Assembly (NCBI GenBank): GCA_008632985.1
Contig: QPGO01000021.1
Location: 248,001-312,000, forward strand
From: Psammoneis japonica
Lineage: Eukaryota
DNA: 64,000 nucleotides
Reading direction: 5' to 3'
Part shown: one piece after another, positions 18,611 through 62,665 of the stretch
How the letters are laid out: each line of letters opens with the position of its first letter
How positions within the stretch are numbered: the first letter of the stretch is position 1
Translations under genes and position numbers: made by a program
The notes under the pieces: model-generated
The model's input: only the letters and a program-made list of their open reading frames with translations
The model's database searches: none
What the model was told of the DNA's origin: nothing

Positions 18611-18729
18611 GGTGATCTAACAACGGTCGTTGTGATCACGTGATCAGAGTTTTTTGTGTCAAAGGATTTGAGATTGAGAATGAGCGCGCGCCCAGTCGTT
18701 CAACGGTCAGACCAAGCAAAAATAACGAC

Positions 18730-23650: not shown

Positions 23651-23964
23651 ACAAAACTTGAAACTGCTGGGCGGGCTGGGTACGAACTTTAAAGCGAATC
23701 AGAAAATGACTTTAGAAATGACTATAATAGACAAAGAGGTAATAATGACCCTCAAAAACATAAGCCCCTTTTCGTTTTGCAACGTCCAAATGACTCTTCA
23801 GCATTCCAAAAAAAAACGTGTTACGTGCTACCTACTACCGAAGAAAGCATTCGTCCTTCACATATTTTATGTGTTGCAAGCTGATCGACTCAACAGAGGA
23901 CTTCGATGCCCCTTCGCTTGTGAACATCCACAAGAAATTTTCTTATCTTCAGCCGACCAACGCT

Positions 23965-26819
23965 ATGCGGTTCAATTCCTTTGCATTGTTGATAACGGCT
24001 GTGCTTACGGATGCCGGTTTCCCGAACAACATGGGCAAAAAGGATCGAGTGAAACTCCAGAGCATCCTAAGTGGCAGACTACAAATACCAGCAGATTTGC
24101 CGTTCTTTGTAAAATATAAAAGCAAAAGAGGAAAGAGAGTGGCAAAACGTTGGGCGAAGAACGGAAGGATCGAAAAGAACTACCCCAAGAAAAGTCTTCT
24201 AATAATGCGTCCAGCAAACAGCACTGCTCTGCGGGCGCTTTCGAAGAACCGTTTTGTAGAATACATCGAACCAGTCCACAATGTACATGCTGTATCTTCT
24301 AACAGACTCACCGTTTCAACCACCCTTGAACAAAAGGAAATCACCCGCTCCTTGCAAGAAACAGTTGGCTATGGCATTGACATGGTACAAGCATCTCAGT
24401 TGTGGAATACTCCTAATGCCACAGAGGTAACCATATGTGTCGTTGACAGTGGGTACGCCCTTGGACATCCTGACTTACCGAATCTTGATTCAGGAGTTAC
24501 AGGAAGCTCCGGTAGAACTGGATATTGGGGACAAGATGGTTATGGTCATGGCTCACACTGCTCGGGGGTAATCGGCGCCATTGGGAGAAATAACCGAGGT
24601 GTTGCTGGCATCATGGGCGACGCGAACCCGTTCAAGCTCCACATTGGGAAATGTTTAGATGACAAAGGCGAGGGGTCTGAAAGAGACCTGGTTGATGCAT
24701 TTGAAAGCTGCGTTGCCGCCGGAGCAAACGTCATTAGCATGAGTCTTGGTGGAGCCGACTACAGTGAATCTTTCCGAAATATTTGTAAGGAGGCCTATGA
24801 CAATGGGATCCTCTTAGTTGCTGCGGCTGGAAATGGTGGAGATGACAGCCATATGTTTCCCGCTTCGTATCCAGAAGTAATGTCCGTAGCAGCGGTTGAT
24901 AAAGATATGAAGGTTGCGGGATTCTCACAATTCAATGACCAAGTAGAGATTGCAGGGCCGGGAGTAGATATTGTTTCCACCGTTCCAACAAACAACGGAC
25001 AAGCCTTTGGATATGACACCTGGAGTGGTACTTCTATGGCGACACCTTACGTCGCTGGAGTGGCCGCGTTGGTTTGGGGGTACTTTCCGCAGTGTTCGAA
25101 TAATCAAATTCGTAACGTGCTCGTTCGAACTGCCATGGCTAATCAAGGTGGCGGATGCAATCATGAGATAGGCTTCGGTGTCGCCCAGGCAAAAGATGCT
25201 TACGATCTACTGTTGGCAGAGGGATGCGATGCTGGGAATCCATCCCTTGTACCTCTGTCAGAAAATGCCCGCGGGGGCTGTGCTCAAGATCCTTTCTATC
25301 AACCACCACCTACAGCATCGCCGACTGCATTTGTGTGCACAGAAAAGATATTCTCACTTGAACTCACTACAGATGAATGGCCGGAGGAGACAGCATGGGA
25401 GGTTGAGAATTCCTCAGGCGATCTTGTTGGTTCCGGCGGTGGATACCGAAAAGGAACACTGCACGAAGAAAAGTTTTGTCTCCCAACGGACAACTACACC
25501 TTTACAATAAGAGATTCGGAAGGTGACGGTATCTGTTGCAACTATGGATCTGGAAGGTATGTTGTGTACTTTGATGGTGATCTGATAGCGGAAGGTGGAA
25601 GTTTCGGAGCAGTTGTTACAGTTGCGTTTGGTGAGAATCAAACAAACAACAGTCCTACGTCACCCCCTGAGTCGCCACTCGGAAATAACGAGTCCAATGG
25701 CGTTTGCACGGATGACAAGGACTGGAGTTATACAAATCCAAAAGGAAGAACAAAGAAGTGTAAATACTTGCAGACCAATACAGCCACAAGATGTCAAATT
25801 GTGGGCACTGATACGTTTGGTAACAACTCACCTGGCTTTGTTGCTTGCCCGGTTACGTGTGGGAGCTGTCCACCGACTGCTTCACCAACGTTTCAGCCAA
25901 CGGCTCTGTCGACCGCATCGCCGACTCCCTTGCCAACATCATCACCATCCTTTCCACCAACGCGGTCACCAACTGAAAGCCCAAGTCCTTCGCCAACGCA
26001 GTCTCCAACAATCTCACCAACTCATCAACCTACAGTGTCACCGACTCGTACGCCGACTATGGTACCGACCGAGCGGCCGACAGTGGCGCCAACGAGACTT
26101 CCTACTCGGGCACCAACTCAGGTTCCGACGAAAACTCCAACCAGCGCTCCTACAAAGGAACCCGCGATGAAAGCAGCCGCAACGACACAACGTCCAAGTC
26201 GGCTGCCGACACTGCCTTCTACACTACGCCCTACCCATAATCCAACAAGGGAACCTACGGTGCAACCAACGGTACATCCAACACCGCAACCTACACAGAC
26301 ACCCACTCCGCCGCCAACACGAGCTCCTTCTCCAGGTCCAACACAACAACCGACGCCGCCTCCTACCCCCAATCCAACACTCAGACCCACTCGTATGCCA
26401 ACACCGGAACCCACGCCATATTCAACACGCAAACCCACTCGCGAGCCAACATCAAAACCAACATCTCAATCCAATAATTATGAGTCGGCTAATGCAAGCG
26501 GCGACGGTGGATGCTGCTCTGATGATTACAAGACATGCAAAAATGGTGACACGTTTTGCAACGCTAGCAAGAGCAACTGTGAAGGCGCCTGTAATAGTGC
26601 ATGGATCGATCCGGTCGCAAATAAGAAATGCATAGGGAACTGGCAGTAAGTAATACTGTGCGTCATTTTCGTGGTCTATATCTTGCAGTCGCTGAAATTC
26701 GATCTCTTTCCTAATGTTTTGACACTAGGCCCTGCACAAACGATGTCAAGGGATGCTGCCCTGGCCTTTACTGCAGCGGTAATCAGCACCATCGACAGTG
26801 CGCAACCCATTTATACTAA
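23965..26819 (+). CDS. Secreted subtilisin-like serine protease (S8), copy 1, with PT-repeat stalk; intron 26646-26728
   Basis: Catalytic motifs VVDSG, HGSHCSG, AAAGN and SGTSMATP; signal peptide; short Cys-rich last exon. Confidence 0.92.
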
Positions 26820-29800
26820 TTTCGAACAGGTATCTACTTTTTCAAAGTGCAAGTTGATACAAATAACATTTGATCTCTCTTTACAGTAAGCGTTGTTTAG
26901 AGAACCAGAGTTCTTTTTTTTTCCAGGTGAATTTTTGTCTTGGCTTTGCCATGGGCCCTACTCTATAGTGCAATCGAAAGGTTGACAAAAAGTGGGCCCG
27001 CCGCTTCGATCAAAGTTCAATCAGGCACATTTGCACTCAAAAGGCTCAATCAAAGCATCTTGCCCAACTTGACAGTCAAAGAATTGCTGCTTTGCACTCT
27101 GCCACCAAAGGCGCTTGTCAATGAGCACTTAGCAGCTTGCTCAAATCACTGCAAAATTACACAGCCATTGAAAATGTCCAACATCACATCATGTCAGAAT
27201 GCTTGTGCACCCAAAGAAACACCCTTGCAGATCTTAACACAAAAAAACAATGCAGCATGCATGGAGAGCCACAGCTGAAGCATCATCTACAATTGCATTT
27301 TCCTGCTTCCTGCCAAAGGTTTCTACAAGGGTGCCAGCAATGAGCACAGCTTGCAAAATGCCAGCCATCATTTCATGCATTGTTTTACAGCACAGTGTGC
27401 TGGCTTGAAGATTTCACAATGCAGCTGGCCCATTTGCCACAGCCACTTGATTTAACAACATTGTTTGGAGCTCCCAATTTTGCCACTGTTGTCATGAATG
27501 TGGCAACTGGGTTGTCCGGGGCAATGAGACAAAGACTGCGAAATTTGTCAGAGACATGCTGCAACCTTTTTTGTCTCAATTTGCACCAGTTCTGTCACAC
27601 CAGCTGCAACGCAAATGCAAATGAGCAACCTCAAACTCCAGGAGCTCAACATTCTGAAGAACAGCATCAATCTTCCATGGTGGGCCAGCCAAATCTGTTG
27701 CTGCTTCTGCTTCAGTCCAAGAAGGCAGTGGTGCACCTCACTCTGAGCACTCTCACCACAGTTTGCAACAAAGGTGCAACTCAGCACAACAATGCAAACA
27801 AGTTTGAGTGCTTTCAGTCATGCAAACAATCAATGCTGCAATGCCCAAGGATGCAGCAGTGCCATGACAAATTGCTGGAAAAGGACACAGCTGAGGGACA
27901 CAAATTTTCCAAGCTCCTGTGGCAGCTTGCACTCTCATTCACTGATGGCAACACATGAATGGATGATGCAAGATCTTGGTCAAATTTGGCATCTCTTTCA
28001 AACTTGAGCAGCTCAGAAAAGCTCAAACCACTCTCCTGGCTCATCAAGCAAAGAAGAAAAGGCATCAGACTCAATTGAATTGCCAGTGAAAGCTTGAGAG
28101 AAATTTTGAAAATGCCAGCCCTGCAGTTTGGGAGCTCCAAACTTGTCAAAATTTGTCATCTTGCCCTTGCACTTGCCACTCAGACCCCCTCACCCCCCCC
28201 CCCCCTCCAAAAAAGGTGCATCTGTGCATGATGGACAAGAAAAACAATGAATGAGCACATTGTTCTGTGACCTTCCAGTTGTTTGAAATGTCAGATCCAT
28301 GCCAAGCAACACAGTGCTTGGTTTTTTGAAACAAATCAGAGTGGCAAGCAATTTTTTGTTTGCAGTCAAACAGTTGTGCTGCACTTTGTGGGCCAGTGCA
28401 TCCAGTTGGATTGCTGTTTTGGACAATTGCTGTGCACCCATCTGACAAAATGAACAGGCGCAGAAATGAAATGGGGGAAGTTGTGACTTGGACATGCAAA
28501 CAGCAGTGCTTCACCCATTGTCAAACAGAGCTTTCATCTCATCAAAAGCTTTCTGGCAGGCATCACTTGCTCCACTCAAAAAATCCTTTGCTGGCCAACT
28601 CAGTCAAAGGAGCAAACACATGAGAGTGCTGGGGCTGCATGTGTGGCAGCAATGCACTGCTGTGCCAAGAAACAACAGTCAAAGCTGCAAAGCAGTTTTT
28701 GGAGGTTGGGGTTGTGGGGCAGCTTCTGCTTTTTTCATCTGGCTTGACAACAGAGTTGGCACATGAGCGAGTGTCCCAGGAAACCCATTTCCTGAACACG
28801 CCGCTTGTGATTCAGCATGATGTTGACATTCAAGCTGCTCATCAGAGTGTGCATCACAGTGATCAAGACTGTTTCACAGGCAACATCTTTTCATGCTGTG
28901 ATGGACAGCCAGTTGTGCACATGGTGAAAAATTGTTGGCTGTGATGGACAAACATTTTTGTGCCATGGGGTGCCCCTCCCCCTCCCAATGACAAAAAACA
29001 TGGCTTGCCACAAAACAGCCACCCATTTTCTCTGTGAGGAGAGTGCCCTCCCTCTGTCTCCACAAAACTTGTCAATCATGAGCATTGGCATTGCAACATT
29101 TCATTTTGTCATTTAAGTTTAATTTGTGCAATGCAATTTTTGGTGCACACAATTGTCGACAATTGCTGGTTTGCTGCATTGCTGTCTGCTGCACCCCACT
29201 TTGCAATTAGATGGGTTGCATTCAAGAGGTTTGGTTCCTTTGCCAGGCTGGTGTGGCATTTTGTGCTGCCTGTTTGTCTTTGATTGAGTTGTTTTCTTCC
29301 TCATTGCCTTGTCCTTTTTCCTCTTTCTTGTCATCGTCATTGTTGCCAGAGAAAGCTCCAGCTTGGCTTGTGCATTTGCTGTCTTCTGTGCTGGCTTTTT
29401 GTGGTTGTTGCATTCTTTTGCTCTTTTCATTGCTTTGTTCTTCCTTCTTGTCATTGCTGCACCCTGTGTTGAGCTGCACACCTCCTGGCTTGCTTGCCCT
29501 GTCTTCTTTCAACCCACCACATGGCTTCTTGAATCACTCTGCTCCTGCATTTCCCCATGAGTTGTGCTGTTTTGCAGGATTGATGCACACAGGCACCAGG
29601 GTTCTTCTTTTTCTTTGTTGTCCTTGTTGACATCTCCCTGTTGAACTGTCTTCTCCTTCACAGCCTTGTGCTCCTAAATTTTCCAGCAGTTTTCCAATGT
29701 TGACAGCTCCAGAGTCTTGTTGCTTGCCACAGCAGCCACCAGTGAGGAAGTGTTGTTTGCATGGCAAAATGAAACTGGATGGCAACAATGTGGGCACCGG

Positions 29801-32689
29801 TGCAAAAAATTGTGAACAAAAATTTTGGGGCAGGGACACAGGAGAGCCAACAAAAATTTCGGAGCAAACAAACATGTGGAGTGAACAGGACATTGACACA
29901 ATTAAAGGCTGAAGGTTGAAATTTTTGTGTTTGTTAGAAGACAGCTTCACTGTGGGAAAGACAGAGGTGACAGATTGCACAAAAAATTTGAGCATCATTT
30001 AAAAAGAGAAGAAGAATTTTGCATGGGCAGTCCATGTAGAAAACACACATGAAGGAAGCCCTCTGGGAAACATTGGGTGATGCAGTCTGCTTCAAATGGG
30101 TGAGACAAATTAAATCAAGCAAACGTCAATTAAACTTGTCTGGGGTGCTTGGGTCAGGTGGGCACCGATGGAATGATGAGGGGTGGTGTGAAATTGATGA
30201 AGACTGTTTAAATTAAATGAGCTTCACCCCTCATTTAAGGAATCAAAACTCAACGGAAAAATTTGACCCCCTCATTGAACCTGCCTCTGATGCAAGCTCT
30301 GTGGCCTTGCTCTTTCCAGACTCCACTGTTTTTCTCCATGCCGCAGTGCTCTTGGAGAATTTTGGGACATTGTCATGCACAGAACCGTGTGCATGCTTCC
30401 TTGTTGGTCTGTCTTTCACCCACAATGATTTCCACAGTTTTGTCCTCCCAAGTTGTTGCCATGCGTGAATGGTTTGTTGATGGGCTCTGCATCTTTCTTC
30501 CTCTTGCCTCTTTTTTGGTTTTTTTCCTCTCTTTGATGGGCTCCCACCACCCTGCTTTTGCCCATGCATTTCTTTGGCTTGTTCTGTTGTCAGCACAGTT
30601 TGTGTAGAGGCCAACAAGCACTGCTGTGTTAGCAGCAGCATCTTCAACTCCCTCATTGCAACATTTTCTCATCACTTGCCACACATTTGCATTCTTCGTT
30701 GTGGACCAAGTGACGGTGTTTTTTTTTGTGACATTGATGGCAATTGGGGTGCACTTTTTTGCCCAGTCTTCCCAGGTTCCTCCCACCCAGTCTTGCTTGC
30801 TGAATTTGCCAATGGCTGTGTTCTTGCACATTTGGTGCAGCCCCTTTCCACCACTCAACATGTCTGTCTTGGCAGGGAACTGTGCTTTTGGAAACAGTTC
30901 TTTTTGAGTCACACCTCTTCAATTTGTTTCTTCAGAGATTGGCGCTCTTCACTTGCTCCTGCCTGCTCCAACACTGCCATCACCCTTGGGCCAAGTGGCA
31001 CTTCCTCTGACCTGTCCTTGTTGGTTGTAAGTTGTTGACAACTTTTGTTGCAACAGCAAGGTTGCAGGTCCCACTCAGACTGCCCACTGTTGCAATGGTT
31101 CAAACTGATTTTTCTGACTAAAATTTTGATGCTCACACCAATGCTTCTCAGTTTGCAGCTGCTGCACATGGCACAAATTAATCACAATGGCACAATTTTT
31201 TTTCTTCCCAATGCATTCCTTGCCATCATCATGTTGCTTTCAAAGTTTGGCAATTGAACATTCAGTTCAAACAAATCATTCCAAAACCTGCAGATCTCTC
31301 AAACATTTCAATTTGGCGCTCACAAGCCAATTTAAAAATGTCAAATTACATGCACAAGCATTTTAACCTGTGAAAGCTTTGTTCATGTGGAATGAATTCA
31401 ATGCACACACCCTTCCCACCAAAGTTGGTTTCCTGTTCCCAATGCTGCACCACAATTTGCTGACACCACACATTTGTTCAGTTGCTTCCTGCTCCAGGAG
31501 AGACTGCAACAAGGTTGTCTTGTTGCCCTCCCTGCACAGGACATGCAGAACATCAAGCCAGGCAAATCAGCTGGAGCTTGCACATCATGCAATTGCACCC
31601 ACACCGCTTGCCCTGCAATGGCTTCAGCAAAGTTAATTCTCTCATGCCATGTTGACAATGGGTTCTTCATGGCAAACATGGGCTCCAAGTCTTCTGCCAC
31701 ATGTGTGCTGTCTTCTTCCTTCAGCAACCTCCAAGCCAAGTCAAACTTTCTTCCTGCCAAGTGGCACATTGGTTTCTCCAAAGCCTTGCATGATCTCTCC
31801 ACATGTGTGTTCCTGTTGAAGAAAATGCACTCTTTCTGCTCCTTCATGTCCATCAACTCTTCCATCAGACAAACAAATGATCCTTGATCTTGGGATTGAT
31901 GGGGCAGTTGAGCGGTGCTGCAATGGCACATCACACATTTTGCAGGTGTCCCATCTTCATGTGTGCAATTGCAGTGTTCACAAACTGTGTGGATGTCACC
32001 AATGTGAGAACAATTGTTGCAATTTCCCTTTGCTGGAACAAAATTGTTCACTGTTTTTTCTGTCAAAGCTCCCTCTGTTGTCCCAAACTTGGCAAGGTGG
32101 CAAACAATCTGCTTTTCCCACAGATGCTTGTGAGTCTTGTCCTTGTGCGGGTGAGCTCTCTGCTCCATCAGTTCCTCAAGGTGCAAATCATGCCACAAGG
32201 GATCTGGGAAGCTTGGGTCCATTGTGCAGCAGACTGAATTGTGTGACACAAACAATGGACACATCCTCTGAACCAATGGAGCCAGATGATGAGTGCAAAT
32301 CTCTTCATGCATGCATGCATCACTGTCTCCATTGCATTTGAGACAGTGTTCTGAGTGACAAATTGTCAACAGCACTGTGCAAGACAATCAAATTGCTGGC
32401 TGATGTGCAACCAAAACTTGCTTTTTGCTTCTTGCAGACAAATTGAACTTTGCAATGTTTTGCTCATCTTCAAGTCAACAAACAATCACAGTGCATGTGA
32501 AATCATTGTTGCCCATAAAATTTTTCACTCATGCAGTGAAAACACAATGCACACCATTTTGCACCCTTTTTGTGCCATGTTTCCAGCCCTGTTGTTGGAA
32601 TTCACCCTCTTTGCATGGCCAAACCAAACAACAATGCCACTTTTCATCAGCTGTGCTGCACAACAAAAAACTCACTCAGGTTGCAACAC

Positions 32690-35600
32690 AGATGATCCAA
32701 AGGCTGACCAGAGGAAAACCACCTGCCCATGTTGCAAATGAACCTTCTTGTGCGCGCTCAGTCACTTTCACAACAACCCCCATTGTGCCTCCATTGCTCT
32801 TGAGAGGGCCAGCTTGTTGCACCATCGTTGCTGTGTGATGGTGTTGTTGTGATGGGCAGGTTGCACATCTTCAGCAAGGGTCAAGGATGCACATGGCAGA
32901 GGATTGGAAGAGCTTGACCAGTCTTCATCATTGACCGACTCATCTCATCCTGTGTTGAGGTGGTCCTCCTGGCGTGGCACAGCTGTCATGAGCATCCAAC
33001 TGGAGCTTCAGCTGTCAAGTGAGACTGTTGGGATGCACCTGCATCACCACCATTTGATGATGACATTTCTCCCCTTGCACCCATCTTTGAGAAAGAGGAG
33101 CAGCACATGTCCATGTCATTGGAAGTTTTGTTGCAAGCGAGCCTGTCTGAAGTGGGCTTGTTTGATGAATTGCTGCCTGACATCAACATGAGCTCTGTTG
33201 CCAATGACTTGGAAGAGGCATCTTCATCCTTGGATGGAAATGTCTCACTTGGCAAGGATGGCAGGTTGGGCAAGGTGCAATCTCACCCAGCTGCTGAAAA
33301 CTTTACAAACTTGCCATCTCTGAGCAAACTCAATGGAACCTGCGTTGAGCTGTGCAAGATCATTGATGACTGCCAAGCTCTGCTTCACCTGTGCAACAAC
33401 ATTGCATGTTTCATGGAAAGGTGTTGTGGAGCCACCTTCAAGCTTGGCACACAAATCCCTTGCCAAAGCAAACCAATCAAAACTTTGTCCAAAGTGTTTC
33501 CCCATCCCACTTGGGAGTTGATTCCTGTCAACCTTGAAAATGGCATGGAAGAAAGGGGTGAGAAAATGGTCACAGTGCTGCATTGAAACTTTGAACAAGA
33601 TTGGGAATCCTGCATGGCAGACACTTGCCCATGGGCAAGCCCAAGCAAACTTGCCAACCCAAGTGATCCACACTTGAAATGTGCTTGGCAAAGGGCCCAG
33701 CTAACAAGTGTGTTTGGCCAGCTGCTGGTGGTGCAGAAGGACCTGAGCCCTGCCATGCCAGAGTGATGGATCCTCAAAAAAAGAGTTCCTGGAATGTTTG
33801 ATGGTTTGTGTCAACAAGACAGGCCAAAACCTCCATCCATGGGATCATCTTGCAGCAAACCTGTCACAGTCACTTTTGCTCATGTTGCCTTCAAAAAAAT
33901 GCATGACAAGGCAAAATGGAGGAGAGCCTTTGGTTGCACTCCCAACTTAGAAAAAAATTCATCTTCTGCTGGAAAGCAACAGTCCAATGCAAGAAAGTCA
34001 GAGAAGGGGTGCAGTCCACAACACCATCACAAGGCATTGAAGACAATGCTTCAGCCGCTGCTGGACATGATGGAATGTGGTGACTTTTGGTGTCATGTGT
34101 GCTGAGGCAACAAGATTTGTTGCCTTCATGTGATTCCCACCATCACCCCAGTCAATGGCAACACAAAGAGTGGCAACCATCTGGCTGGCCAACGTGGAGC
34201 TGAGAATTGTTGTCAGTGCTGTTCCAGGTTTTGCATGATGGGATGTCATGACCTGGATGACCCTTCAAAGGAGTGCAAGCTTGTGTGTGCCAGCAACCTT
34301 GCATTTGCACAGGAAAATGCCATGGACAATGGTCTGTCAGAGGAAGAGCAAGCTCAATGGGACAATCAGCTTGGTTGCATGAAGCAACACAGTGTCTCTG
34401 TGAATTGCTTGCTTCATTCATGCAGATTTAGGAGAGCAACTGTTTGGGGCAACCCTGTCCACTGCAAGCAACATGATGCACCTGTTTGAGAGCGGCACTC
34501 TCAAAAAAGAGATTGGTGTGTTTGTGGACAGCATGACCAACTTTGTGAGAAGCAAGGTGGACAGAATCACAGAAAGGATGTTTGGCCAACACAGATCCAC
34601 TTGCACAACCCAATTTTTACAAACTAATTTCAAAGGTGGTGCAACATCACTGGCCTTCCCCAGTTCTCATCACAGGGCAGAAATGGCCTTTGTTTTTCAC
34701 ACGTTGCTGCCAGCCAAAGATGATTGTGATGCGCGCGCCTCTTGTTTCTTGGATGAAGACCACGACAACTTTCTGTTGCCAGAGAATCATTCCATGCCCA
34801 AATTCCAAATGGACCATTGCTGCAAACCAAACCAACTGAGCATGATGCTGAAAATTACACCCCAGCAGACAAGTTGGAATCTGGTCAGGACAGAGCTGAT
34901 GTTCCACATGACACAGATGCCTCTGTCAAAACAGAGTCAATGTGGACAGCAAATGTGAGAAAGTCAGCAATGACAACAACCAGAAGTGTTGCACACAGAA
35001 AAAGAAATGACAACCACTTAACTGTGGCATGCATCAGCATCTGAGGTTGCTCAAAGATTTGCTGACATTCCATGCCTGGCACAAATTGGGCAAGCCACCC
35101 ACAGATCTAAATGATCTGAGCAAGATTGGCAAGAAAATTTGCTGGTTGATGGCAAGAACAACAGCACAACAGCGCATTTTACACCACGTCATGAGGGAGC
35201 CAGGTGGAAGTCACATTGGCTTCACAAGCTGCTTCGCCTGACAACATTTCTTTGTTTCTTCTGCCATTCCATGAACTTCAATGCTGGGCTTGGGCAGTCT
35301 CTGTCAAAGGATTGTTCAAGCTGCTTTTGGCTGCTGCACAGTGGCAACTGCACAGCAGCACAGCTTAAAAGTTTTCTTGAGTCAAGTCATGTCCTGAGTG
35401 GAAGACCAAATTGATGGTTCACTTGGCAATTGCTGCAAACCCATGGATTGTTTCTGGGAAGCAAGGGCATGCCACACCTGCTCCAATGCAATGACGCTGA
35501 CTTGGGTGCAGCACTTTTGCTTGCTCTTCAGTGCAGTGAAACAAACAAAGCCATGTCCTTCTGTTGGCTGGGAAAGCAAGCTCACTGCCAGGTGCACCCC

Positions 35601-36152
35601 ATCCTTTTAAAGTTCTTGGGCAAATGATGGAGGGAGTGTGTGAGCATTGACAATGAAACTCTTGACTTGCTCACATTCAAACCTGAGTGCTGCAACAGGA
35701 GTGGAGTTGATGCTTGCTGAGCACACCTGGGCTGCAACAGCAAAGGCTCCATGTGTGACTGGGCTGGTGTCAACTTTGGAGCTTGGCACAGGGATTTGTG
35801 TTTCCCATCTTGGCTTTGCTGTTTCTTTAAAAATCCAAGCAATGGTGAGTCACCAAATTGTTCACCCAAGCATGCACCAGACAGAAAAGCACTCAATGGC
35901 AGAGAGGCTTCAATGCACCAACCTGGTGAGTCATTGGCAATTGGACCAAGTGAAAAACCAGGATTTGTCAATGGCCAACAAAGTGGTGCACTCCCCTGAA
36001 CTATCTTGGTGCTGACAGATGCAATGAGAGACAAGTTGTTGGTGGATGAAGAGCAGCCAGGTGTTGCAGAGACACATGACAAGACCAGACATGTCTGGGT
36101 GGTTCAAAACAGGAGAACAACATGGGCAGACAAGCTCCACATGAGCACATGA
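32690..36152 (+). pseudogene. Plavaka-like (CACTA/EnSpm-related) transposase relic
   Basis: Fragments resemble Plavaka motifs as I recall them once TG/CA are reverted: AFG(C>Y)TPNLEK, (HH>YY)HKALKT(M>I)LQPL, VNG(N>D)TKSGNHLAG, CSRFC, DLDDP, NF(N>D)AGLG; many stops and frameshifts. Confidence 0.6.
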
Positions 36153-37345
36153 CAAGGTTTTTTTTTCAACAAGTGGTCATCACTGCAAGGGGCAACAAAG
36201 GTTGGGAAAGGGGTTGGCATGGTTTGTTTGTGTGCAACTCCCAACACATGTGACACTCACCTGAGTTTTGCATTGCGATGGGCTTCCAAGCTTCCAATGC
36301 TCATTCTTGGGTTTCTGACATTGGGTCTGACCAGGTTTCCATTTGTGACGAGTGTTTTTTGCTCAAAGGACAGGAGCTTTGATGGCTTTGTTTTGTTCTC
36401 CATCAGCAATGTCTTGAAGAACCACAACACTTTCTCTGTGTCTGGACAACATTCCTGGATTTCCTGCTCCATCACTTCCAAATGCATCTCTTCCTGATTA
36501 GATGGCTTGCCAAGCCATTCCACACTTTTTCAGTCACCAATTTTCATCAAAGCTTGGCAAATCCTCAAAACAACCTTGCTTGTGGTGTCCTCATTTGCAC
36601 CCAGGATGCACACACAAGTGCACATGAATTTCAAGTTTTTCACAACTTGTGCCAGTGACTGAAGGTCAAATGGAACAATGATTTTGGACCTGTGCAATCT
36701 TGGGTGTGTCAGACACATGATCACTTCTTGCAGATTCTCTAAAAAAAATGTTGTCCAAATGCATGTGGTCTGTTGCCATTCCCCTCATTGCACCCAGCAG
36801 CAGCCCACACAATTTTGACAAAGCCATTCATTCCAAAACCAATGTTGCCCCAAAATTGTTCTAAAACCCTCTCCACAAAATCTTTGAAAGAAACATTGCA
36901 GCTCAGGTGATGGGTGCTGCTTCTGTCCCAGAGCAAAATGGTGTGTGCTTCTGTGCGCACTTGTGTCTTCTTTGTTGATCAGAAACTGCCAACCCAATGC
37001 CTGGGTTGGGGCACAACTCATCCAAAGAGAAGTCTCTTGCATTCACTGGTCTGGTCATGCCAAGCCAAAGGAACTTGGTGCTGCTGTCATCCCTGCAAAT
37101 GAATGGGAACAATTGTCACCTCAATCAGAGGAGGAGCAACGTGCTGCTGGACAATTTGCTGCACCAACAAACAAATGGGACTCACACTGTGGTTTGCAGG
37201 ACACAAACCACAGTTTGTGGGACACAAACTTTCCTGTCAGGAATGCTCACAAAAACTGGCAGTTGTGCACTGGGAGGGAACTCGTTGTCTGAATCCACTT
37301 GCACAACAAAGTCAGTTCTGGCAGTTGCAAGCTTTGCAATCCAAT

Positions 37346-37630
37346 GAGTCCAAATTGTTGTCAGCTGTGGGTCCAGAAACAACAGAGGCAGACAATGTGG
37401 TGGTGCACTCCATGGATGCATGATCTGTCATTGAGCCCAAATCAATGTTGGCCACAGAACCAGAAAGAAGGGAGGTTGACAAGTCGTCAGTTGCTGAGCC
37501 CAAATCATTGTCAGCTGCCAGTCCAGAAACAACAGAGGCAGACACAGACTCTGCGAACTTGTCTGTCATTGAGTCCAAACCATTGTCAACCATGGCAGGA
37601 TCAGAAAGGAGGAAAGTTGATGAGTCATTG
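37346..37630. repeat. Internal direct duplication of a ~140-150 bp unit
   Basis: GTCCAGAAACAACAGAGGCAGACA and TCTGTCATTGAG-CCAAA...CAGAAAG-AGG-A-GTTGA each occur twice. Confidence 0.7.
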
Positions 37631-40600
37631 GCTGTTTGCACATGCTCAGCCAATGCAGTGTCCAAGATCCTCTTGGAGAAGTCTTCATGTTCACAAACAC
37701 TGCCCACTGTGTTGGCACAAGATTTGGTCAACATGCCAGAACCTGGTGTTGTTGGCTTTGTGCACAGGACAGATCATGGTTGACACAGTCCACAGTTTGA
37801 CACTTGGCAGTGCCATGCTCCTGACAAAGATGCCGCAGGCTAGATGCCAGATGGAGAGAAGGCAAAAATGTCTTGACCTGAAACAGGACTCCCCAGAACA
37901 AGCAATGGAATGTGTTGGTGCAACAAGGGCTCAGTTCAATTCCCTTGATTGCTTGGTCCCAGTTTCAGAGGGGATCCTGTCATGAGTCAGAGGCTGTTCT
38001 TCTGACTTGATGTGTGCTTCAGCTGTTCTACAGCTCCAGAATTGAAAATGAGGCACACAATGTCATTTGGACAAGAATGGTCCTTCGAGACAAGAACAGT
38101 GTCTGGCAAGAGCAAGATGTTGCAGAACCAAAATGAGACAAAACTCAAAGAAAGCTGTCCCACAGTTTTCCCACACATCACAGGCTGCCTTGCATCATTG
38201 TTTGGATTTGCGCCAAACTCATCTCCTGTGTCTGTGTTTTCATCAATCTAAAGCAGAGTTGTGCAAATTTTATCTGCCATTTTGTCAACCACTGGATTTG
38301 CCTTGTCATTGTCATTGGGGTCCAAAAGAACCCCGCCCTTTGCAAACTTCTTGTCCATCATGTCAGTGGGGCTGATCTGCCCCACCTGTTTGTCCCCTGA
38401 AGGAAACACCAAACTTCTTCATCATCAACTTTTGGAAGAGCACAAATGGGTCCATTCCTTCACAACAGAGATTGGGCAAGTGCTTGTTGTCACCAATGCA
38501 GCAAAAATGGTGGCACCTGGCAGGACAACCTGCCAAAATTGCAAGACCCATGACATGTTTGGGGTCAGGGTCAAACCTGCACAGTCCACCATTCCTTTGA
38601 ATTGGCAAAAACAACTGTGGCTGGAGCTGAGAGATGAGTGTCTCTCACAGGGCAAGCTGGTGGCTTCAATTGGTCCATGCACACTTTGGGAACACTGGTG
38701 GTGCCACCGCCGCCTGTTGCAACAGACAACCAAGGACAACTGTCATCCAGCAACAAGTGCTTGAATGCATTTGCAGATGGCTCAACCTCTGGGTGGGAGG
38801 GACTGTCATGCATGAGGTCCATGTCTTGCAGTGCACAGTCCAGTTGAGCTTTGTTGCAATGCATCTGCATCAGCACTGGTTGCATGTTGAACTTGTCATT
38901 GCAATGAAACTCATCCATGATGAAGAAACAACTTGCTGATGTCTTCAAGCAGCAATGCCAGCTGCAGCTGTTTGCATTGTGGTGACCTGCACAGTGCTGG
39001 CCATGACCTTGCATTGTGCAGTTCTCCTGTTTGAAACATGGGCAACCCAACTTGTCAGCCAAAATCTTGGCATGCTCATCACACCAAAGCAACCAGTTGA
39101 AAGGCAGAGGGTTGTTTGCTTTCTTGAGCCACCTTGTTTTCACAAAGCTGCAAGAGTCCAAAATGTCTGCAACTGCAGCCTTTGTCTTGGCAGACAAATG
39201 TTTGTAAAGTTCTCCTCATCCACATCAAACACATCAAGATCTCAAGTCTCCATTGGCTTTGTAGACTTGGTGGAGCCTGGCTCCTTCCAATGACACTTCT
39301 GTCCAGCACACCCAAACTTGATCATTCTTCTGTCTCCAGATGCCACAGTGTTCAATCCATCATGCTTGAGATTGGGTTTGCCCTTCAATGAAATGAAAAG
39401 CAGTGGGGGTGGGCACACAACATGGAGACTGCCAAAGCAAGATTGGCAAAACTGCACTTGCTCGCCTTGCAACAGATGGCACCTCCAAGCAATGATCTAG
39501 ATCAGGAGGGTGATCCACTTGGACACACCGGCAGGCCCCTTGGCAGGATTGCCTGTGGGAGTTTTGTTGGCAAACTTGTGCCAGCCAGTTGTGCACCAAC
39601 TTGTCTGCAAGGTGGAAGTCACCAGCAGAGTGGTGCAGAATGTGCTCAATGTCAGTGGCCTTGTCAATGATGTGCAGGCATGACAAATGAGCAACAACTT
39701 CATCAGAGGCAACAGGGTGACATTTGGATGGGTTGAAGCATTGGCAGACCGTCAACACATCCAGCCACACAGCATGTCATTGGGGTTCTGCAGTGGGGAG
39801 TCAACAATCAGGTGCTTCACAGCAATGCTGGCAGGGCTGGAAGTGGAAGGATGAAGAAGGTTTGGCCAGGGTGATCATGTCCAACAAAGTGGGAATGTTG
39901 GAGGCAAGGGTGTGATGAGAATCCCTCAACAATGACACATTGTCAGATGCTGTGGGAGGAGTTGGGTTGGAAGGAGCAAAGGTCTTGGCCTTCTTGCAAG
40001 GGATGGTCAAAGAAAGCTCTTGTGGAACAAAGAAAAATTTGGAGAAAAGAAATTCATGAGACTGAGGGACATGGGAATGTTCAGGCAAACAAGTGTGCTT
40101 GCTGGCATCACACAAACAGATGGGTTTTTGATTTGCACTCTTGTTTGTGTTCATCTTCCAAACACCAGTCAGCTCTCTGGTTGTGTCTTCTGCAATGGAG
40201 CATCATGAGCTGCTTGCAGCACATGGGGTGGGTGCCGGGCTGCTCTTTCAGACTTCAGACAATGCTTCCCAAATTCTTGCTCCTCCCAGTGGGCCTTGGC
40301 ATTGCAATTCTTTGTCACCAGGCACTTTGTGCCATGAATTTCGTCTGTGACATGTGCCTTGATGGCATCCTCCTCTGACCCAACTTTGCCAGACTCACAA
40401 ATGACAAGAAAGCTGTTGACAAATGTGCAGCAATTCTTCTGTGTCAACCTTCCAAAAAACCCACAAGAGCCAACAACTGGTTCCTTCTGCTTGCGTTGCA
40501 CATGGTGCATGCATGACTGTTTCAGCAACAAAGAAAGCACCATGAAGGTCACATGCTTGGTGACAATCAAGGCCAGGAGACTGACACACTTCCAAAAATG

Positions 40601-41949
40601 GAAACAAGGCTTGTTGCCTGTCAGCAGATCATTGAGGTTCTCACCAGCAGCAATGATGTGGTGCACAAACTCAACCATCACATTGATGTTGCAGCAGAGT
40701 TTGTGACATTGCTGCTTCTCCTTCCCCATCTCACCAGGTGTTGCAGAGAACTCAAGAGCTTCCTCTGGCTTTCTGCATCAAAGAACATGGCCACCCTTGG
40801 CTTGACAGGATCTCTTGATTCCCCAACCACAAGTTGATGCAGGACCACATGTCAGGACATCCGAAGGACTTCCTTGCAACATTGTTGGTGTGGATGACTT
40901 CTACAACATGTGGAAGATGATGAAGTTTGGCTTGTGGCAAAGGAAGGGAGGCACCAGGAATTCTGGAGAGGGTGCCCAATTTGTTTGCTCCATGAATTGC
41001 ATTTTTTAAAGGCACATGCTGTGTTGTGCTTTTGAGCTTTGGCCCAAACAACTCTGTTCCAAAACCATTGGCAAAACATTCCCCATGTCATCAAAATCAA
41101 CATTGCCATTGAAAACAAATGAGGGGTTGGGGTTGACCTCATTGGCTGATGGGGCAAAGTTGTTCACTGCCATGGCCAGTTGTTGATTGGAGACAACAAC
41201 ACGTGCAATGCACGCAAATCACAGCAGTGCACACTCTTGCTTTTCCACATTTGGGGAGAGAGTGTGCCATTGTGAAATGTGCAGATGTTGGTGCACATGA
41301 AAAAATGCTGATGAAGCCACAGACCAACATGCTGTGTGAATCTGGGAAGCAGGAAAAAACGAGGGTGCACACATGGTGGTGGCAACTTGGGCATGCAGGG
41401 GCAATGTGGCACATGCACATGAGTGAGGAGGGCAAAGTTAAAACCAAGTTCAGTTGAAAAGCAACAAAAAAAAACAGGTGTCACTGAAGGTGACATTGCA
41501 AAGAGAGTCAACCAATGCATGCATGTTGTTGAAGCCAGTGTCGGAAGAGCAAACTCAGAAACAAAACAAACATGCCAAACAAAAGCATTTTGTTTGACAT
41601 GGTCACTCAAATTCTGCACATTCAACTGGTTGGTGAAACTGGTTGGTGAGCTCAGCAACAACTGCACAAACATTTACAAAGGAAAGCCAAAGCTGTTTGT
41701 TCTCCATTTGATCTGGTGCCACATGCCAATTGCAAGACTTTGGCCAATGCCAAGTGTCTTTCACAGGTGCAGCTTGACCCATCCAATGGAGAGGTCTTGA
41801 ATTGCAGCTGAGTTTCAACTCCATTTTCTTGAGGAAACCATGACCCAAAGCAACATTGCTGCAAGCACACATGGCACTCAAAAACACAGTTGGTGGTTCC
41901 AGCCACAGAGCGTGTTTTGTCAAACTCTGGGAAAGTCAAGTCACAGAGC

Positions 41950-43270
41950 AAGACCCAGTGGCCAGATTGAAGTGGCCCAGCTGGCATCTGAAAGAAGCAA
42001 GGCTCTCTTTCTCACCAACCAATGGTTTTGTGTCTGTGGCAGCCCCATGGAATGGACAAGAGCATGAGAACTGCATCCTCCACAACTTGGAGTGCATCAC
42101 CATGAGAAGCTGCTCAAGCCCCCAGTTGCTGGCATTTTCTGCTTGAGCAGTTCTCTGGCTCCAACCTCAAGCATCAGTGCAATCAGCATTGCCATCTTGA
42201 ATGTTCTGATTTTGATTGTTGCAGCGATGCTGGCCACCACCCTGGTGATTTGCACCATTGCTGCCTCAAGATTCATGGCAACTGCAGTTGTCATTGTCAC
42301 AGGTGCCTTTCACCATGACTGCCATGGCACCCACCACCCATGTCCATGGCCACCACACACCACACAATTGCCACAGACTGCCTTGACTTGGTTGCTCTGC
42401 TGGCACCCCCTGATGTCCTTGATGGTTGGGATTCTGAGGGTTGTCATGGCACTGTGCCCACCAGGAATGGAGTCCCTCATGCTGTGGCACACTGGACATG
42501 GGTCACTGGGATTTGGCTGCATCTTGCTGCCTTCTCAACCATTGCTCATGTCCACAAACACTCTTGAGTTCATGCTGCCACCTCCATTGCCACTGCAGCC
42601 ACTGTCATCATGGCTTCTGTTGCAATCATCCTTGCTTGCCACTGTCAACAAATGGCTTGTTGATGTCCATGCGTGTTTGCAGATCCAACACTGCATCAGC
42701 AGTCAAACTCTTGCCTGCTTGCATGCACAGCTGCTGCCAGTCAAAAAATGTCTTTCATCTCCTGCTCTGTGAGAACAAAAAGGCAGCTCCAGACAAATTT
42801 TGGCACAGCAAAACACATGGTTTTCATGTGGCTAATGTGTGCAGCAGTTTTGGCTGAAAATGACTTCTTGCAAGCACAGGCAAGCATGCTTTTGCATTGT
42901 CACAAGCTGCTGCTTTGAGTGGCACCAATGTGCCAAATTTCAATCCAACAGCATGAGCATGAGCTGATCCACACTGGCAGCAACATTTGACCATTTTCCT
43001 TTGGCAGCAGTGTCACAGCCACAAGCAATCTTCAAAGTGGCCAAACAGCTCCAGCCCAATTGTGTGCTGAAAGTGGCAAGCCAGTTTGGAAAACTGATTC
43101 TCAATGCACAACAATGCTTTGGCACCATGCTCCCCACTGAAAATTGGACAAGTGCTTCAAGCACCATTGTTGAACTTCTGCATGAGGTTGAGATGTCTTT
43201 GAGGAGAGGACAAACAAGTTTTGCATTGTGTGCAATTCAAGCAGTCTCCAGAGCAGCTTGATGCATGATG
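41950..43270 (-). pseudogene. Possible gag-like relic of an LTR retrotransposon
   Basis: Across a frameshift reads DPCPV-PQHEGLHSWWAQC(H>Y)DNPQNPN, a C-x-H-x-H-x-C knuckle followed by a Gly-rich tail; similarity from memory only. Confidence 0.3.
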
Positions 43271-43293
43271 TGACAACATTTGGAAGCTGGCCA

Positions 43294-43364
43294 ATCATCA
43301 TCATCAACAACAACAACAACAACAACAACAATGACAACAACAACAGCAACAACAACAGCAACAA
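43294..43364. repeat. (ATC)n/(CAA)n microsatellite
   Basis: atcatcatcatcaacaacaacaac...caacagcaacaacaacagcaac. Confidence 0.85.
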
Positions 43365-44312
43365 AGACAATTTGTCATCACACAGCCCATGCAACACATC
43401 TGTGATCAACAACCAAGCAAAAAAGTGCCTTAAACTCAACTGCATTGGGATGAGTTTTGATGTCAATGAACAATGCTCCATTCACCAACTTCAAGCATGG
43501 CTGCAATTGTTTCCTTTATGAGCCTCATTTCAACCCACATTCAAATCAATCTCTCTTTTTTTCTTTTTGTTGGTGTTCTGAGGATGGGGAGATGCCATTG
43601 CTTGCTGCAAGACAGTGGATGAGAGCAAGAAACAAGACAACAACAGCTGCAACAACAGCACAAGATCTGGCTTGAGATGGCTTGACATTCTTGACAATTG
43701 TGAGGAGAACCAAGAAGGGGGTGCTGTGGGGGTGAAACCCTTCAAATGGCTCCCCTGGAAAACACTGTGCGATTGTGTGCTGAGTGTGCCAGGACAGTTG
43801 CTGCACTGTTGATGTCATTCCCACAGGTGTGTGCTGCAATCATGGTTTTTTACAAACTTTTGCTGAAATTACATGCTCACTTGTTTTTTCATGTCTCGCC
43901 ATTTCTGCTGAGATCATTGCCAGTTTGCTGCTGTCTCAAATCACCGCTCATTTCAAGCAATCTCCAAGAGTTCTCAAATGTGCTCACTTTGGCTGCCAAG
44001 CCACTTTCCCCTCTGTCACACCTCACAATTTTCTGGAATGCCAAAATCTTGGATTCCATTTGTGTGACAATGCTGGACAAAGAAGATGAGAAATGCTGGG
44101 AGGAGCAAAGCCAAGGAGTCATCAACTTTGGCGGCTCAACAGACAGAGAGAAACTCTTGAGGGGCTTCAAGCTCCAACCACTTGAGTTGCAGTTGATTGA
44201 ACCAATTGGCACAGGGGCTGTTGCTTTCATGTCTGCATCATCTTCATGGCTGAGACATTCATGCCATCACATCAGCCATGCACTGGACTGTCATTGGCGC
44301 TCACCAGTGCCA

Positions 44313-44350
44313 GTGCTCAAATGTGCTCAAACATGCTCAAATGTGCTCAC
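44313..44350. repeat. 10-bp tandem repeat, about four copies
   Basis: gtgctcaa atgtgctcaa acatgctcaa atgtgctcac. Confidence 0.75.
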
Positions 44351-44989
44351 TTGTGATGAATGTGTTTGCATCTGTGAGTGCATGTCACAAAAATGCAACA
44401 TCTGTCCTGCCTGGCACATTTGTTGCCAATCTGTTGCAAGGCAGGTGGCAGCCACGCAGGCAGGCCACACAGGCATGAGCATGCAGACAGAGCCCACAAA
44501 TGTTCCCTGCTGCTGCATCAGCATCCACACTCTGCACGGCACAGTGGAAGCGACTCTGCTCCTCTCATTGATGCAGTGCATGTTGAGACAGTTCATTGCT
44601 TGCTGCATGTGCCACATGGCACGCAGGTGCACACAGTCTCCTTTCAGTTGCCACGATGAAAATGGTCGCTGATGGGTGAAGTGAGAGATGCCTGACTGCT
44701 CCATGGTGTCTCCCATCCTGCCAGAACAATGAGGGGTGCCTTGGGCTGACCTCATTTTTGCTGCTTTCATCCAATCATCTGGCTGCTGTGGCCGGCTGGG
44801 ACAGATTCTGCAGGACAGGCATGCAGGCACAGACCCACCTGTCACCTGCAGGCAGGCCTGCAGCACCATGCGGGCATTTTGCTCAAAACGTGCGAATTTC
44901 GTGCGACAACATTTTGAAAAAACATGTGTCACGTTGTGGCCATCATGATGTGCAACTTGAATCACGTTTTGTTGAAACACCACCTTTTG

Positions 44990-45120
44990 CTCAAACATGT
45001 CATGTTTGAGAAAACAGGACTCAATGTTTGAGGAATTGCTCAAACTTTGCGCAACTTTGAGCACTTGCTCAAACTTGCTGCTCAAACTTGTGCGCAAAGT
45101 TTGAGCACTTGCTCAAATGT
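44990..45120. repeat. Cluster of GCTCAAA/TTTGAGC direct and inverted motifs (subterminal-repeat-like)
   Basis: CTCAAACATG-t-CATGTTTGAG (44990-45010); GCTCAAA...TTTGAGC hairpins at ~45038-45062 and ~45080-45106. Confidence 0.7.
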
Positions 45121-45691
45121 GCAAAATTGATGCCAGCAGTCTGCCGGTGTGAAACTGCCATGCAGCACCAGCCCACCACACCGCACATGCTGTGTGCACT
45201 GCTGTCACTGCTTTCAATGCATGCATCTGTCAGTGCAAAGTGAACCCAACGGAAACAAGGTGTTTGCAGTCGTTGCCGGCAAACAACAAAATTGCAACCA
45301 TTGCACCATGGTGACATGAACAATGATTTCTCTGTGACAATGCCTTCAAGAAACCCAGTGTTCCAATGAAAGACATGTGACACAAACTCACACATGAAAA
45401 TGTTGAAAGTTCCAGCAGAATGGGCTTGTTGGGGGGGCTGCGGGGACCAACAAGGAACAGTGTCATGCAACAACATTTTGTCTTTTGTTTCGATCAAAAA
45501 CATTTTTCAAACCATGCCTTGGCATTGACGTGTGCCATGATGTTCACATTCATTGTTCCAAGTAAAAAACACGTCAAATGGATCATCAGCAAGTGCTGGC
45601 ATTAGACCATCTTCATGTTGTCATCACAGCCCCGTTCATCATTGTGCCAATGCAGATTTTTTGTTTTTTGGATGCGCGTTTCTTTCCAGCA

Positions 45692-46950
45692 ATGGCCAAG
45701 AGGGTCACTGAAGACCAAGGCCTTGAAAATGGCGGTCAATGTTTGCAGGGGGAGCAACTGTGGGCATCCGTTCATCGCGTTTATGATCGCCATCCCGAGG
45801 AAACAATCACTTGGTCATTTGTGCACCACACAGTCAAGTGGTGAACGCCATTTTTCAGTGTGATGGAGGGATAATTTTGCAAAGGATTCATGATTGCTTC
45901 ACTGTGGAATTTGGAAGTTTTTTCAGCATGTTTGCAACTCAGAAGAGATGCAGAATCCCACCGGAGTGGAGGTGATTGAGATCTGCTGCACCCAACACCG
46001 GATGTCATTGGGGACGGGCACAATCCGGCAGACTTCTTGAGTGAGAACAAGCTTTCAATGTTGGTGAACAACATGGACCACTCATGTGAGGATGCTGAAG
46101 TGTGTCTCGTGGCGGAGCCAGAGTTGGACATCAACGCATGTCCTCTGCCACCCACTCTCAAACAAGATGCCTCAAAAGAGATGGCTCCCACACTTCAACC
46201 ACTTTGGAGTGAGACTCGTCACAACATGAAAGAAGATGATGTTTGCTGCGGCACACGTCCATCGGATGCTCCCGATGTGCCTCACAAGTCAGAGTCTGCA
46301 AGTGACGAACTGATTCACAAAGTGATGACCATCGTTGACAAAAAGAGAATCACAGTCAAGAACATGGATGACTGCGGAGACCATGCAAGTGCTTTTGTTT
46401 GTTGTCACTCGTTTTTGTGTGGAGGCTCATTTGAGAATGGAATCTCACATTCATGTGTTGCCGCTTTGCTCCAAACCAGGTTGATTTCACCATCGATGAC
46501 AAGACATCTTCATTCAAGTGCACTGCCACTGTGTGGAAAGAGATGTTTGAGACAGCAAAGCATCGTCTCTTTGATGGGGCGGTGCATTTGGACAAGATCA
46601 TGCAAGGGGACTGTCTCATCGGAAGGGGCAAGCAAGACCGGACGTCTCCGGCACAATGCTTCGTCATTGATGAAAACATGGCAAAGCCAGGAACTCGCAA
46701 CAAGGCTTTCAAAATCAACTGGGATGATTTCCCAATGATTTGCACAATTGACTCTGCATGCACAAAGAAGCAACGGGATTGGAAAACAAATCTTTGTGCA
46801 CCCCCCAATCGCACGTGGAAATGCACCGCTCCGTTGCACCAAGACCCGCCGAAGTTGGGGGTTCGCAGCCTCCACAAAGACAGTCTTGGACTTGTGTTTC
46901 ATGATGGGGTCACATGTGCACAAGCCCCGCTTGTGTCACTCGATTGCTCT
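45692..46950 (+). pseudogene. Degenerate coding sequence of unknown function, nearly Tyr-free
   Basis: Protein-like stretches in successive frames (46037-46738, 46453-46974) with CpG retained, TpA absent, and Cys/His where Tyr might be expected. Confidence 0.4.
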
Positions 46951-46999
46951 CAGTGTTGGAATCTAGAGAGTTGAGTGCAGATGTTTCCCTTGCACCCGC

Positions 47000-47330
47000 C
47001 ATCGTGTTCTGCCATTTCTCTCATCACCTGCCAGTGCCGGTGCCGGTGCTCTCTCTCTCTCTCTAGAGTTGCAGCTCTCTGCCACTGCCAGAGAGGGCCT
47101 CTCTGCTCTCTTTCTCTCTCTCTCTCTCTCTCCACTTCCACCACTGGAGCAGCAGCAGCAGAGCAGCTGCACCGGTGGCTCTGCTCCCTGTGATGGCTGG
47201 CCCCACTCTCCAGAGAACAGTGGGCAGAGCAGTGTGATGCGACTCTCTCTGCTAGTGGTGGTAGCTAGAGTAGCTGCTACTCTCTCTCTAGCAGCTGCTA
47301 GCTAGTAGAGAGAGAGTAGGGCTAGAGGTC
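47000..47330. repeat. Low-complexity tract at the position matching 23520-23650, grading from CAG/CTG/CCA to TAG/CTA
   Basis: Lies between the same conserved anchors (GCACCCGCCATC ... AAAACTTGAAAC) as in copy 1. Confidence 0.7.
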
Positions 47331-47718
47331 TAAAACTTGAAACGGTGGCCTTACAGTGCCGGCACCTGCCATGACCAACTAACAAAGCGAAATCAGACAC
47401 TGTAAATGACTTTGGAAATGACTATGATAGACACAAAGGTAATAATGACTCCAGCTTTTTTTAATGATGATATAAATGAAGCTATTTTTCCATGTAAGAA
47501 AAACATAAGCCTCTTTGCGTTTTGCAACGTCCAAATGACTCTTCAGCATTCCGTGTTACTGTACTCTAGGTACCGGTACCGAAGAAAGCACAATAATTCG
47601 TCCTGCACATGTTTTTTTTTTTTTTTTTGGGCAAGCTATCGACTCAACAGAGGACTTCGATGCCCCTTCGCTTGTGAACATCCACAAGAAATTTTCTTAT
47701 CTTCAGCCGACCAACGCT

Positions 47719-62614: not shown

Positions 62615-62665
62615 GGACGGGGGCCAGTCAGCCCTAAAGCTGGCCTGCAGCCCTCCTCTACCTGC

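Follow-up and report, generated by a model that had tools for sequence, protein, structure and literature searches.

A TpA-free block in the genome of the diatom Psammoneis japonica as a probable end state of locus-targeted TpA hypermutation

TpA-directed hypermutation appears to have been reported only once so far, in a 2026 preprint on a rhizarian alga, and no enzyme is known for it (Mettrop et al. 2026, bioRxiv 10.64898/2026.01.13.699255). In this preprint, 15 mutation-accumulation lines of Bigelowiella natans revealed two regions of hypermutation: a single-copy, silent 186-kb insert of a nucleocytoplasmic large DNA virus (NCLDV) and a 25-kb virophage. Of the 231 mutations, which arise at about 6e-7 per site and generation, 230 are A-to-G or T-to-C, the GC-biased ones all falling on TpA according to the authors. 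Furthermore, the B. natans genome carries 124 clusters that are poor in TpA and rich in CpA+TpG, in which 81% of the genes have no annotation; ADAT2 was proposed as a candidate enzyme (Mettrop et al. 2026). Here, we describe a block of about 20 kb that is nearly free of TpA in a 64,000-nucleotide stretch of the Psammoneis japonica assembly GCA_008632985.1 (contig QPGO01000021.1, positions 248,001 to 312,000 of the forward strand). This stretch is hereafter called the window, and all positions are given within it. The block probably results from a hypermutation of the same kind, carried to saturation.

In ascomycete fungi, repeat-induced point mutation (RIP) changes C to T at CpA, which creates TpA, and it needs duplicated sequence. 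APOBEC/AID deaminases act on C in DNA and ADARs act on RNA, one strand at a time. The amphioxus ADAT2 (BjADAT2), as far as is known the only one from a eukaryote to have been assayed on DNA, deaminates adenine and cytosine there; its preferred contexts are 5'-GAA-3' and 5'-TCG-3', respectively, and it acts preferentially on hairpin or single-stranded DNA (PMC10354150). In diatoms, a DNMT5a-dependent methylation of transposons has been described (Hoguin et al. 2023, PMC9998398).

The feature on which this study bears is the following:

26,970-47,250, no strand assigned: TpA-free zone (the block), with 69 TpA against about 826 expected, 2300 TG, 2403 CA and a GC content of 47%

In all 20 one-kb windows between 27,001 and 46,001, the observed/expected ratio (O/E) of TpA lies between 0.00 and 0.12, versus 0.31-0.99 in the ordinary flanks. 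The TpA density is 3.4/kb over the 20,281 bp of the block (n=69) and 40.7/kb over 38,252 bp of flanks (Poisson P of about 1e-256). The edges are sharp: dense TpA ends at 26,966 and returns at 47,253, and the boundaries are bracketed by 26,966/27,130 on the left and 47,064/47,253 on the right. TG and CA each reach about 1.9 times their expectation, AA/TT stay at 1.05-1.5 times theirs, and the GC content equals that of the flanks. Tyr codons fall to 0.64 per 1000, versus 23.7 in the flanks, and Cys and His codons are more frequent. Among the stop codons of the six frames, TGA accounts for 1022 of 1134 in the block versus 1425 of 2726 in the flanks. A preliminary description of this DNA, made from the sequence alone, had noticed most of this composition. 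Its account of a block that is not GC-rich, abounds in TG and CA, has open reading frames (ORFs) poor in Tyr and mostly stopped by TGA, and is flanked by genes of ordinary TA content agrees with these counts, and the near-absence of TpA is stronger than it had said.

The loss is symmetric between the strands. TG and CA, which occur in nearly equal numbers, are randomly interleaved (runs test, z=+1.3) and form no tracts, which excludes one-strand RNA editing as well as long strand-coordinated tracts. Together with the sharp edges, this bears out the earlier proposal of a localised conversion of TpA to TpG/CpA at the DNA level.

The few surviving TpA are far from a random sample. None of the 69 lies in an RTAY context (R, purine; Y, pyrimidine), versus 31% of flank TpA, and 43 of them are YTAR, versus 14% in the flanks. 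TTAA alone makes up 22 of the 69, versus 2.1% of flank TpA, and 17 would be expected if TTAA were never hit. We fitted a four-parameter multiplicative model in which the survival of each strand's A in 5'-TA-N-3' is set by N. Presupposing that the ancestral contexts were like those of the flanks, the fitted per-strand survival is 1.0 for N=A, 0.31 for G, 0.11 for C and 0.04 for T. This model is preferred to uniform survival (likelihood ratio 146.9, 3 degrees of freedom) and reproduces all 16 contexts. Under this rule, TA would be lost in front of T, C or G, whereas TAA would be kept. TTAA is spared and RTAY is extinct because A is lost before T, C or G and kept before A. Since an A-to-G change on one strand is a T-to-C change on the other, adenine deamination and thymine modification cannot be told apart here; the equivalent T-to-C reading is 5'-N-TA-3' with N = A > G > C, but not T. 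Another origin of the survivors, back-mutation from TG/CA, was rejected, as it would predict 7% of TTAA (chi-square P=3e-15). As a separate observation, seven of the 69 survivors, each in a YTAR or mixed context, are grouped at 27,130-27,453, less than 500 bp from the left edge of the zone, possibly reflecting a gradient of conversion there.

The block separates two tandem copies of a subtilase gene, and its right edge enters one of them:

23,482-26,872, plus strand: subtilase gene, duplicate 1, directly left of the block, of ordinary composition
46,943-50,266, plus strand: subtilase gene, duplicate 2, directly right of the block, with an ordinary TpA content in the gene body
46,943-47,250, no strand assigned: host-derived sequence inside the TpA-free zone, corresponding to the upstream end of duplicate 2

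The gene bodies of the two duplicates are 91% identical, i.e. 9% diverged, and the TpA-free zone overlaps the first 300 bp or so of duplicate 2. As MAFFT aligned the edges of the duplicates poorly in low-complexity DNA, a transition-tolerant alignment was used instead. Over the 83 securely aligned columns at the right edge, one of the eight TpA of the paralogue (23,482-23,565) is conserved; four correspond to TG or CA and the remaining three to different changes. Beyond the zone, the gene body conserves 83 of 101 paralogous TpA, with symmetry between the two directions of comparison (Fisher P=1.1e-4 for 1/8 versus 83/101). Conversion would therefore have acted in place on host DNA, spilling over about 300 bp of it. 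At the same edge, a CT/CAG-rich low-complexity stretch (47,004-47,262) resembles a converted form of the CTA/TAG-rich stretch at 23,543-23,650 and is about 220 bp longer.

TpA is not the only dinucleotide that was lost. CpG is also depleted between 26,970 and 44,100 (4.6/kb versus 54.8/kb in the flanks), which the preliminary description had overlooked, and the block is thereby divided into two parts:

26,970-44,100, no strand assigned: sub-zone without TpA and CpG (TpA 3.7/kb, CpG 4.6/kb)
44,101-47,250, no strand assigned: sub-zone without TpA in which about half of the CpG is kept (TpA 1.9/kb, CpG 25.1/kb)

We interpret the first sub-zone as older or as carrying more methylation. The joint deficit of TpA and CpG in the block (84.4/kb) is balanced by the excess of TpG and CpA (85.9/kb), and the total of pyrimidine-purine (YpR) steps is 243.0/kb in the block and 241.5/kb in the flanks. 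This balance is the outcome to be expected if, in a sequence of host-like composition, all TA and CG had been replaced by TG or CA. The decay of CpG in DNMT5-methylated transposons (PMC9998398) explains the CpG loss and part of the TpG/CpA gain between 26,970 and 44,100. However, it is unable to remove TpA, and the loss of TpA extends over DNA in which half of the CpG is kept; CpG decay is thus a component and not the whole explanation. The two losses are separable: in the second sub-zone, and in a small patch at 18,724-20,100 described below, TpA has been lost completely although about half of the CpG remains. We infer that TpA loss is faster or wider than CpG decay.

Taken on its sequence, the block is therefore probably (we would put this at roughly 0.72) the saturated end state, in a diatom, of a locus-targeted TpA-to-TpG/CpA hypermutation to which CpG decay was added. 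Nearly every TpA would have been turned into TpG or CpA by an A:T-to-G:C transition on either strand, and methylated CpG would have decayed to TpG/CpA on top of this conversion. A dedicated enzyme, either a DNA adenine deaminase or a thymine-modifying activity, would be directed to a silenced chromatin domain and not to repeats. The effect would be to disable the DNA permanently, by removing Tyr codons, TAA and TAG stops, and TATA-like and AATAAA-like signals. The numbers available for B. natans (211 mutations, 6169 TpA, 3132 generations; Mettrop et al. 2026) give a rate of about 1e-5 per TpA per generation, at which a 95% loss of TpA takes about 2.7e5 generations. Such a process is fast enough to saturate a locus while the neighbouring duplicates diverged by only 9%.

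The TpA loss might instead be a by-product of repair, the deamination of methylated CpG recruiting mismatch repair and an error-prone, Pol-eta-like polymerase that mutates A:T pairs nearby. Pol-eta prefers the WA motif, as in the A:T phase of antibody hypermutation. The coincidence of both losses over 17 kb speaks for such a by-product, and so does the CpG methylation of silent diatom transposons via DNMT5a (PMC9998398). However, TpA loss does not follow CpG decay in the second sub-zone, where it is complete with about half of the CpG surviving, and it is hence independent of it. Moreover, a WA preference should also have eroded ApA, whereas AA/TT remain above expectation, and it accounts neither for the sparing of TAA nor for a loss that is near-total instead of patchy. 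We consider this explanation unlikely.

What the targeted DNA was bears on a second possibility, that the block is foreign DNA from a virus or another donor that was already poor in TA and CG before it integrated, without any mutation in the diatom. The preliminary description had called it a block of transposons, which the searches do not uphold. None of the 101 stop-to-stop ORFs of at least 90 aa passes the Pfam threshold, three matches below threshold being at chance level, and a permissive rescan of 16 ORFs (E up to 10) gave none at the cut-off. The longest ORF, 31,401-32,387 on the minus strand, has no match by phmmer in 1.84 billion representatives, and for the second longest, 43,704-44,669, a word-indexed search retained none of 821 candidates. 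Searches of three block ORFs against viral contigs and of one against metagenome contigs found no relative. In the ESM Atlas, one block ORF has a weak match to CACTA-type Transposase_21/Plavaka (0.87), which is below the reliable range and without support from Pfam, and a second ORF has no match. Self-comparison within the window detected no long terminal repeats (LTRs), terminal inverted repeats or internal repeats in the block, and neither self-BLAST nor a word search in a purine/pyrimidine (R/Y) alphabet found a relative of it elsewhere in the window. Nine ORFs reach at least 200 aa, versus a simulated mean of 2.9 (order-1) or 3.95 (order-2, with a maximum of 9) in 60 simulations of each order, which is a weak excess. 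The median 3-base periodicity is 3.9, versus 2.6 in shuffles and 11-18 in genes, and is at most a faint coding trace.

One part of the block differs from the rest by its copy number, as estimated from the depth of contigs from run X1:

29,000-31,000, no strand assigned: multi-copy part of the block, with many diverged copies in the genome and a summed X1 depth of up to 590 per bin

Two shorter stretches of the block also have diverged copies elsewhere, and the remainder is at a single-copy depth similar to that of the flanks.

The absence of homology between the block and the rest of the window, its position as an insert between two gene duplicates and its ORFs without relatives would all suit a foreign donor. 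However, the TpA-free zone enters a host-derived duplicate whose paralogue has TpA, and 7 kb away there is a second TpA-depleted patch. In GC content and total YpR the block equals the host, as expected of a converted host-like sequence, and the survivors obey an enzyme-like neighbour rule. In addition, our literature searches turned up no genome with a TpA O/E near 0.05. An origin as DNA that was poor in TA from the outset is accordingly quite improbable.

A third explanation holds that the composition is an artefact, modified bases (for instance a modified A or T at TpA and 5-methylcytosine at CpG) having been miscalled in long reads. Nanopore data can indeed miscall N6-methyladenine as G and 5-methylcytosine as T, and the library type of run X1 is not on record. 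The contigs of this run cover all 30 bins of 17,001-37,000. Five pieces of 0.6-3.2 kb lie within the block at a depth of 58-68 and differ from it by 1-18 letters each, and a flank piece has a depth of 56. These are long exact-word contigs that agree with the block at depths of 56-68, unlike raw noisy reads. Furthermore, a modification of both strands would yield TG from the reads of one strand and CA from those of the other at the same site, whereas every observed site shows a single, clean state, and TG and CA are interspersed at random. The exact-word contigs at depth and the single clean state per site make a base-calling artefact very improbable. Finally, the idea that a retroelement transcript was edited by an ADAR-like enzyme, reverse-transcribed and inserted is scarcely credible: ADARs do favour a 5' U (Discussion of bioRxiv 10.64898/2026.01.13.699255), but a one-strand A-to-G signature would be expected where TG equals CA without strand tracts, no reverse transcriptase or LTR was found in the block, the conversion reaches into flanking host DNA and the loss of CpG would be left unexplained.

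Several points nevertheless weigh against locus-targeted hypermutation as an explanation of the block. No mutation was witnessed, and everything is deduced from an end state and one paralogue comparison, which is short, comprises eight TpA and lies partly in low-complexity sequence. The ancestral composition of the block is assumed to have been like that of the flanks, and no unmutated relative of it was found in the window, even with the transition-proof R/Y alphabet. Its target is not demonstrably foreign, with no Pfam family, no homologue and a periodicity barely above that of shuffles. Run X1 is possibly the source sample of the assembly, so that the bases are supported but not independently. 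Lastly, no enzyme was identified, and the GAA preference given for BjADAT2 is the opposite of a rule that spares TAA.

The closest relative of a hypermutated diatom block is the process of B. natans. By the account of Mettrop et al. (2026), both show changes exclusively from TpA to TpG/CpA, with either strand affected, in discrete regions of tens of kb. They also share a single-copy target and mostly unannotated genes in clusters that are poor in TpA and rich in CpA+TpG. When the cut-offs used for the B. natans clusters (Rho TpA <=0.43, CpA+TpG >=1.52; bioRxiv 10.64898/2026.01.13.699255) are applied here, 21 of the 64 one-kb windows qualify, 20 of them being consecutive. The two cases differ in their stage. 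In B. natans the process was caught in action and its targets are recognisable as NCLDV and virophage, whereas the diatom block would be an end state whose target is unrecognisable. TpA depletion is mild in B. natans (Rho of 0.45 in the NCLDV insert, no depletion in the virophage) and saturated here (O/E 0.05). The main text of the preprint makes no mention of diatoms, CpG or context beyond the dinucleotide. The diatom block belongs to a stramenopile and has lost CpG too, and its 3'-neighbour rule, in which TAA is spared, can be read from the survivors. What it appears to add to the published case is the occurrence in a diatom, the saturation, the combination with CpG decay, the extension into host DNA and the sparing of TAA. 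Our literature searches found no paper reporting TpA-free DNA or TpA hypermutation in diatoms. The preliminary description had presented the system as undescribed, a claim that has to be dropped, since the same TpA-specific A:T-to-G:C hypermutation has been measured in B. natans. The block is best read as belonging to a kind described once before and not as a categorically new system.

RIP offers a second comparison. Like the diatom block, it is a heritable, locus-restricted transition hypermutation that disables DNA permanently, may leak into neighbouring sequence and is associated with cytosine methylation. However, RIP creates TpA, which is nearly absent from the block, where CpA is doubled. 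Moreover, RIP depends on duplication, whereas the block is mostly at single-copy depth and nothing in the window repeats it, not even when compared in the R/Y alphabet. The analogy with RIP drawn in the preliminary description thus fails as regards the trigger, as a repeat-dependent one is unsupported when most of the block is single-copy. Its judgement that CpG deamination, RIP and one-strand RNA editing are each inadequate holds: TpA is lost where half of the CpG is kept, CpA is doubled and the strands are symmetric. The defence deaminases (APOBEC/AID, ADAR and ADAT2) share with the proposed process the logic of mutating invaders to death, and their chemistry could give A-to-G. The GAA context of BjADAT2 (PMC10354150) is unlike the motif of the block, TA followed by T, C or G. 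The ADAT2 idea thus gains no support from context, but a diverged paralogue could still be involved. As had been stated, the window itself holds no candidate enzyme, no deaminase gene being found among its genes.

A broader reading, to which we give even odds, joins both cases: diatoms would carry an active, chromatin-domain-targeted editor that erases TpA, the same system as in Bigelowiella and an old genome defence of the whole SAR group (stramenopiles, alveolates and rhizarians). It would act on silenced or incoming DNA, single-copy DNA included, outrun CpG decay, spare TAA/TTA and spill over a few hundred bases, and the specificity of its enzyme would be unlike that of any characterised deaminase.

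If locus-targeted hypermutation did produce the block, a saturated example in a diatom would mean that the process is not confined to a single species and might occur widely in marine protists. Its end state would be DNA without TA and CG that is beyond the reach of homology search, and such DNA would escape the annotation of transposons and endogenous viruses. The case yields a testable rule of specificity, by which TA disappears before T, C or G but persists in TAA. The enzyme could also be approached by comparison, via deaminase or thymine-modifying genes that species bearing such blocks share and others lack. Furthermore, it bears on models of mutation rate and base composition for silent DNA of phytoplankton.

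Two other parts of the window had been reported to carry the same signature:

18,724-20,100, no strand assigned: second, small TpA-depleted patch between divergent genes, with 6 TpA against 56 expected
about 60,300-64,000, plus strand: GC-rich element (61% GC, versus 47% for the genome) with a possible partial signature, running off the window

In the small patch, the signature is indeed present, with 4.4 TpA/kb and 26.1 CpG/kb, i.e. about half of the CpG kept. Run X1 differs from the window there by one TpA to TpG change (19,653) and one CpG to TpG change (19,096), which hints at either ongoing change or an allelic difference. The GC-rich element, which had been called DIRS-like, has at most part of the signature, with a TpA O/E of 0.34 and TG/CA reaching only 1.3-1.5. 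RTAY accounts for 4 of its 45 TpA, versus 31% in the flanks (P=8e-4). It contains an ORF of 677 aa without Pfam family and, after it, an ORF whose match to the reverse transcriptase family RVT_1 is below threshold (E=0.066), so that a DIRS-like identity is uncertain.

The window, flanking genes included, is to all appearances diatom nuclear DNA. A gene for the glycine-cleavage P-protein (GDC-P, 52,052-54,217) encodes a product with 83-86% identity to the proteins of Chaetoceros, Attheya, Odontella and Thalassiosira, and its neighbours are ordinary eukaryotic genes encoding Deltex/RING ligases, the two subtilases and a BTB protein. The RING-finger genes at 13,018-14,934 and 15,987-17,942, both on the minus strand, are diverged tandem paralogues with a DNA identity of 66-75%. 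The longer one ends with a Deltex C-terminal domain and adjoins the small TpA-free patch. A spliced contig of run X2 reveals a 79-nt GT..AG intron at 21,881-21,959. By its behaviour this run resembles an RNA run, though it is not recorded as RNA, and its lack of cover on the block is not evidence of silence. Moreover, a 5S ribosomal RNA gene (5756-5874, plus strand; Rfam RF00001, 100.6 bits) stands solitary among protein-coding genes. Two sets of diverged tandem repeats, at 652-1154 and 8527-8990, with units of about 100-190 nt, lie in DNA of ordinary composition.

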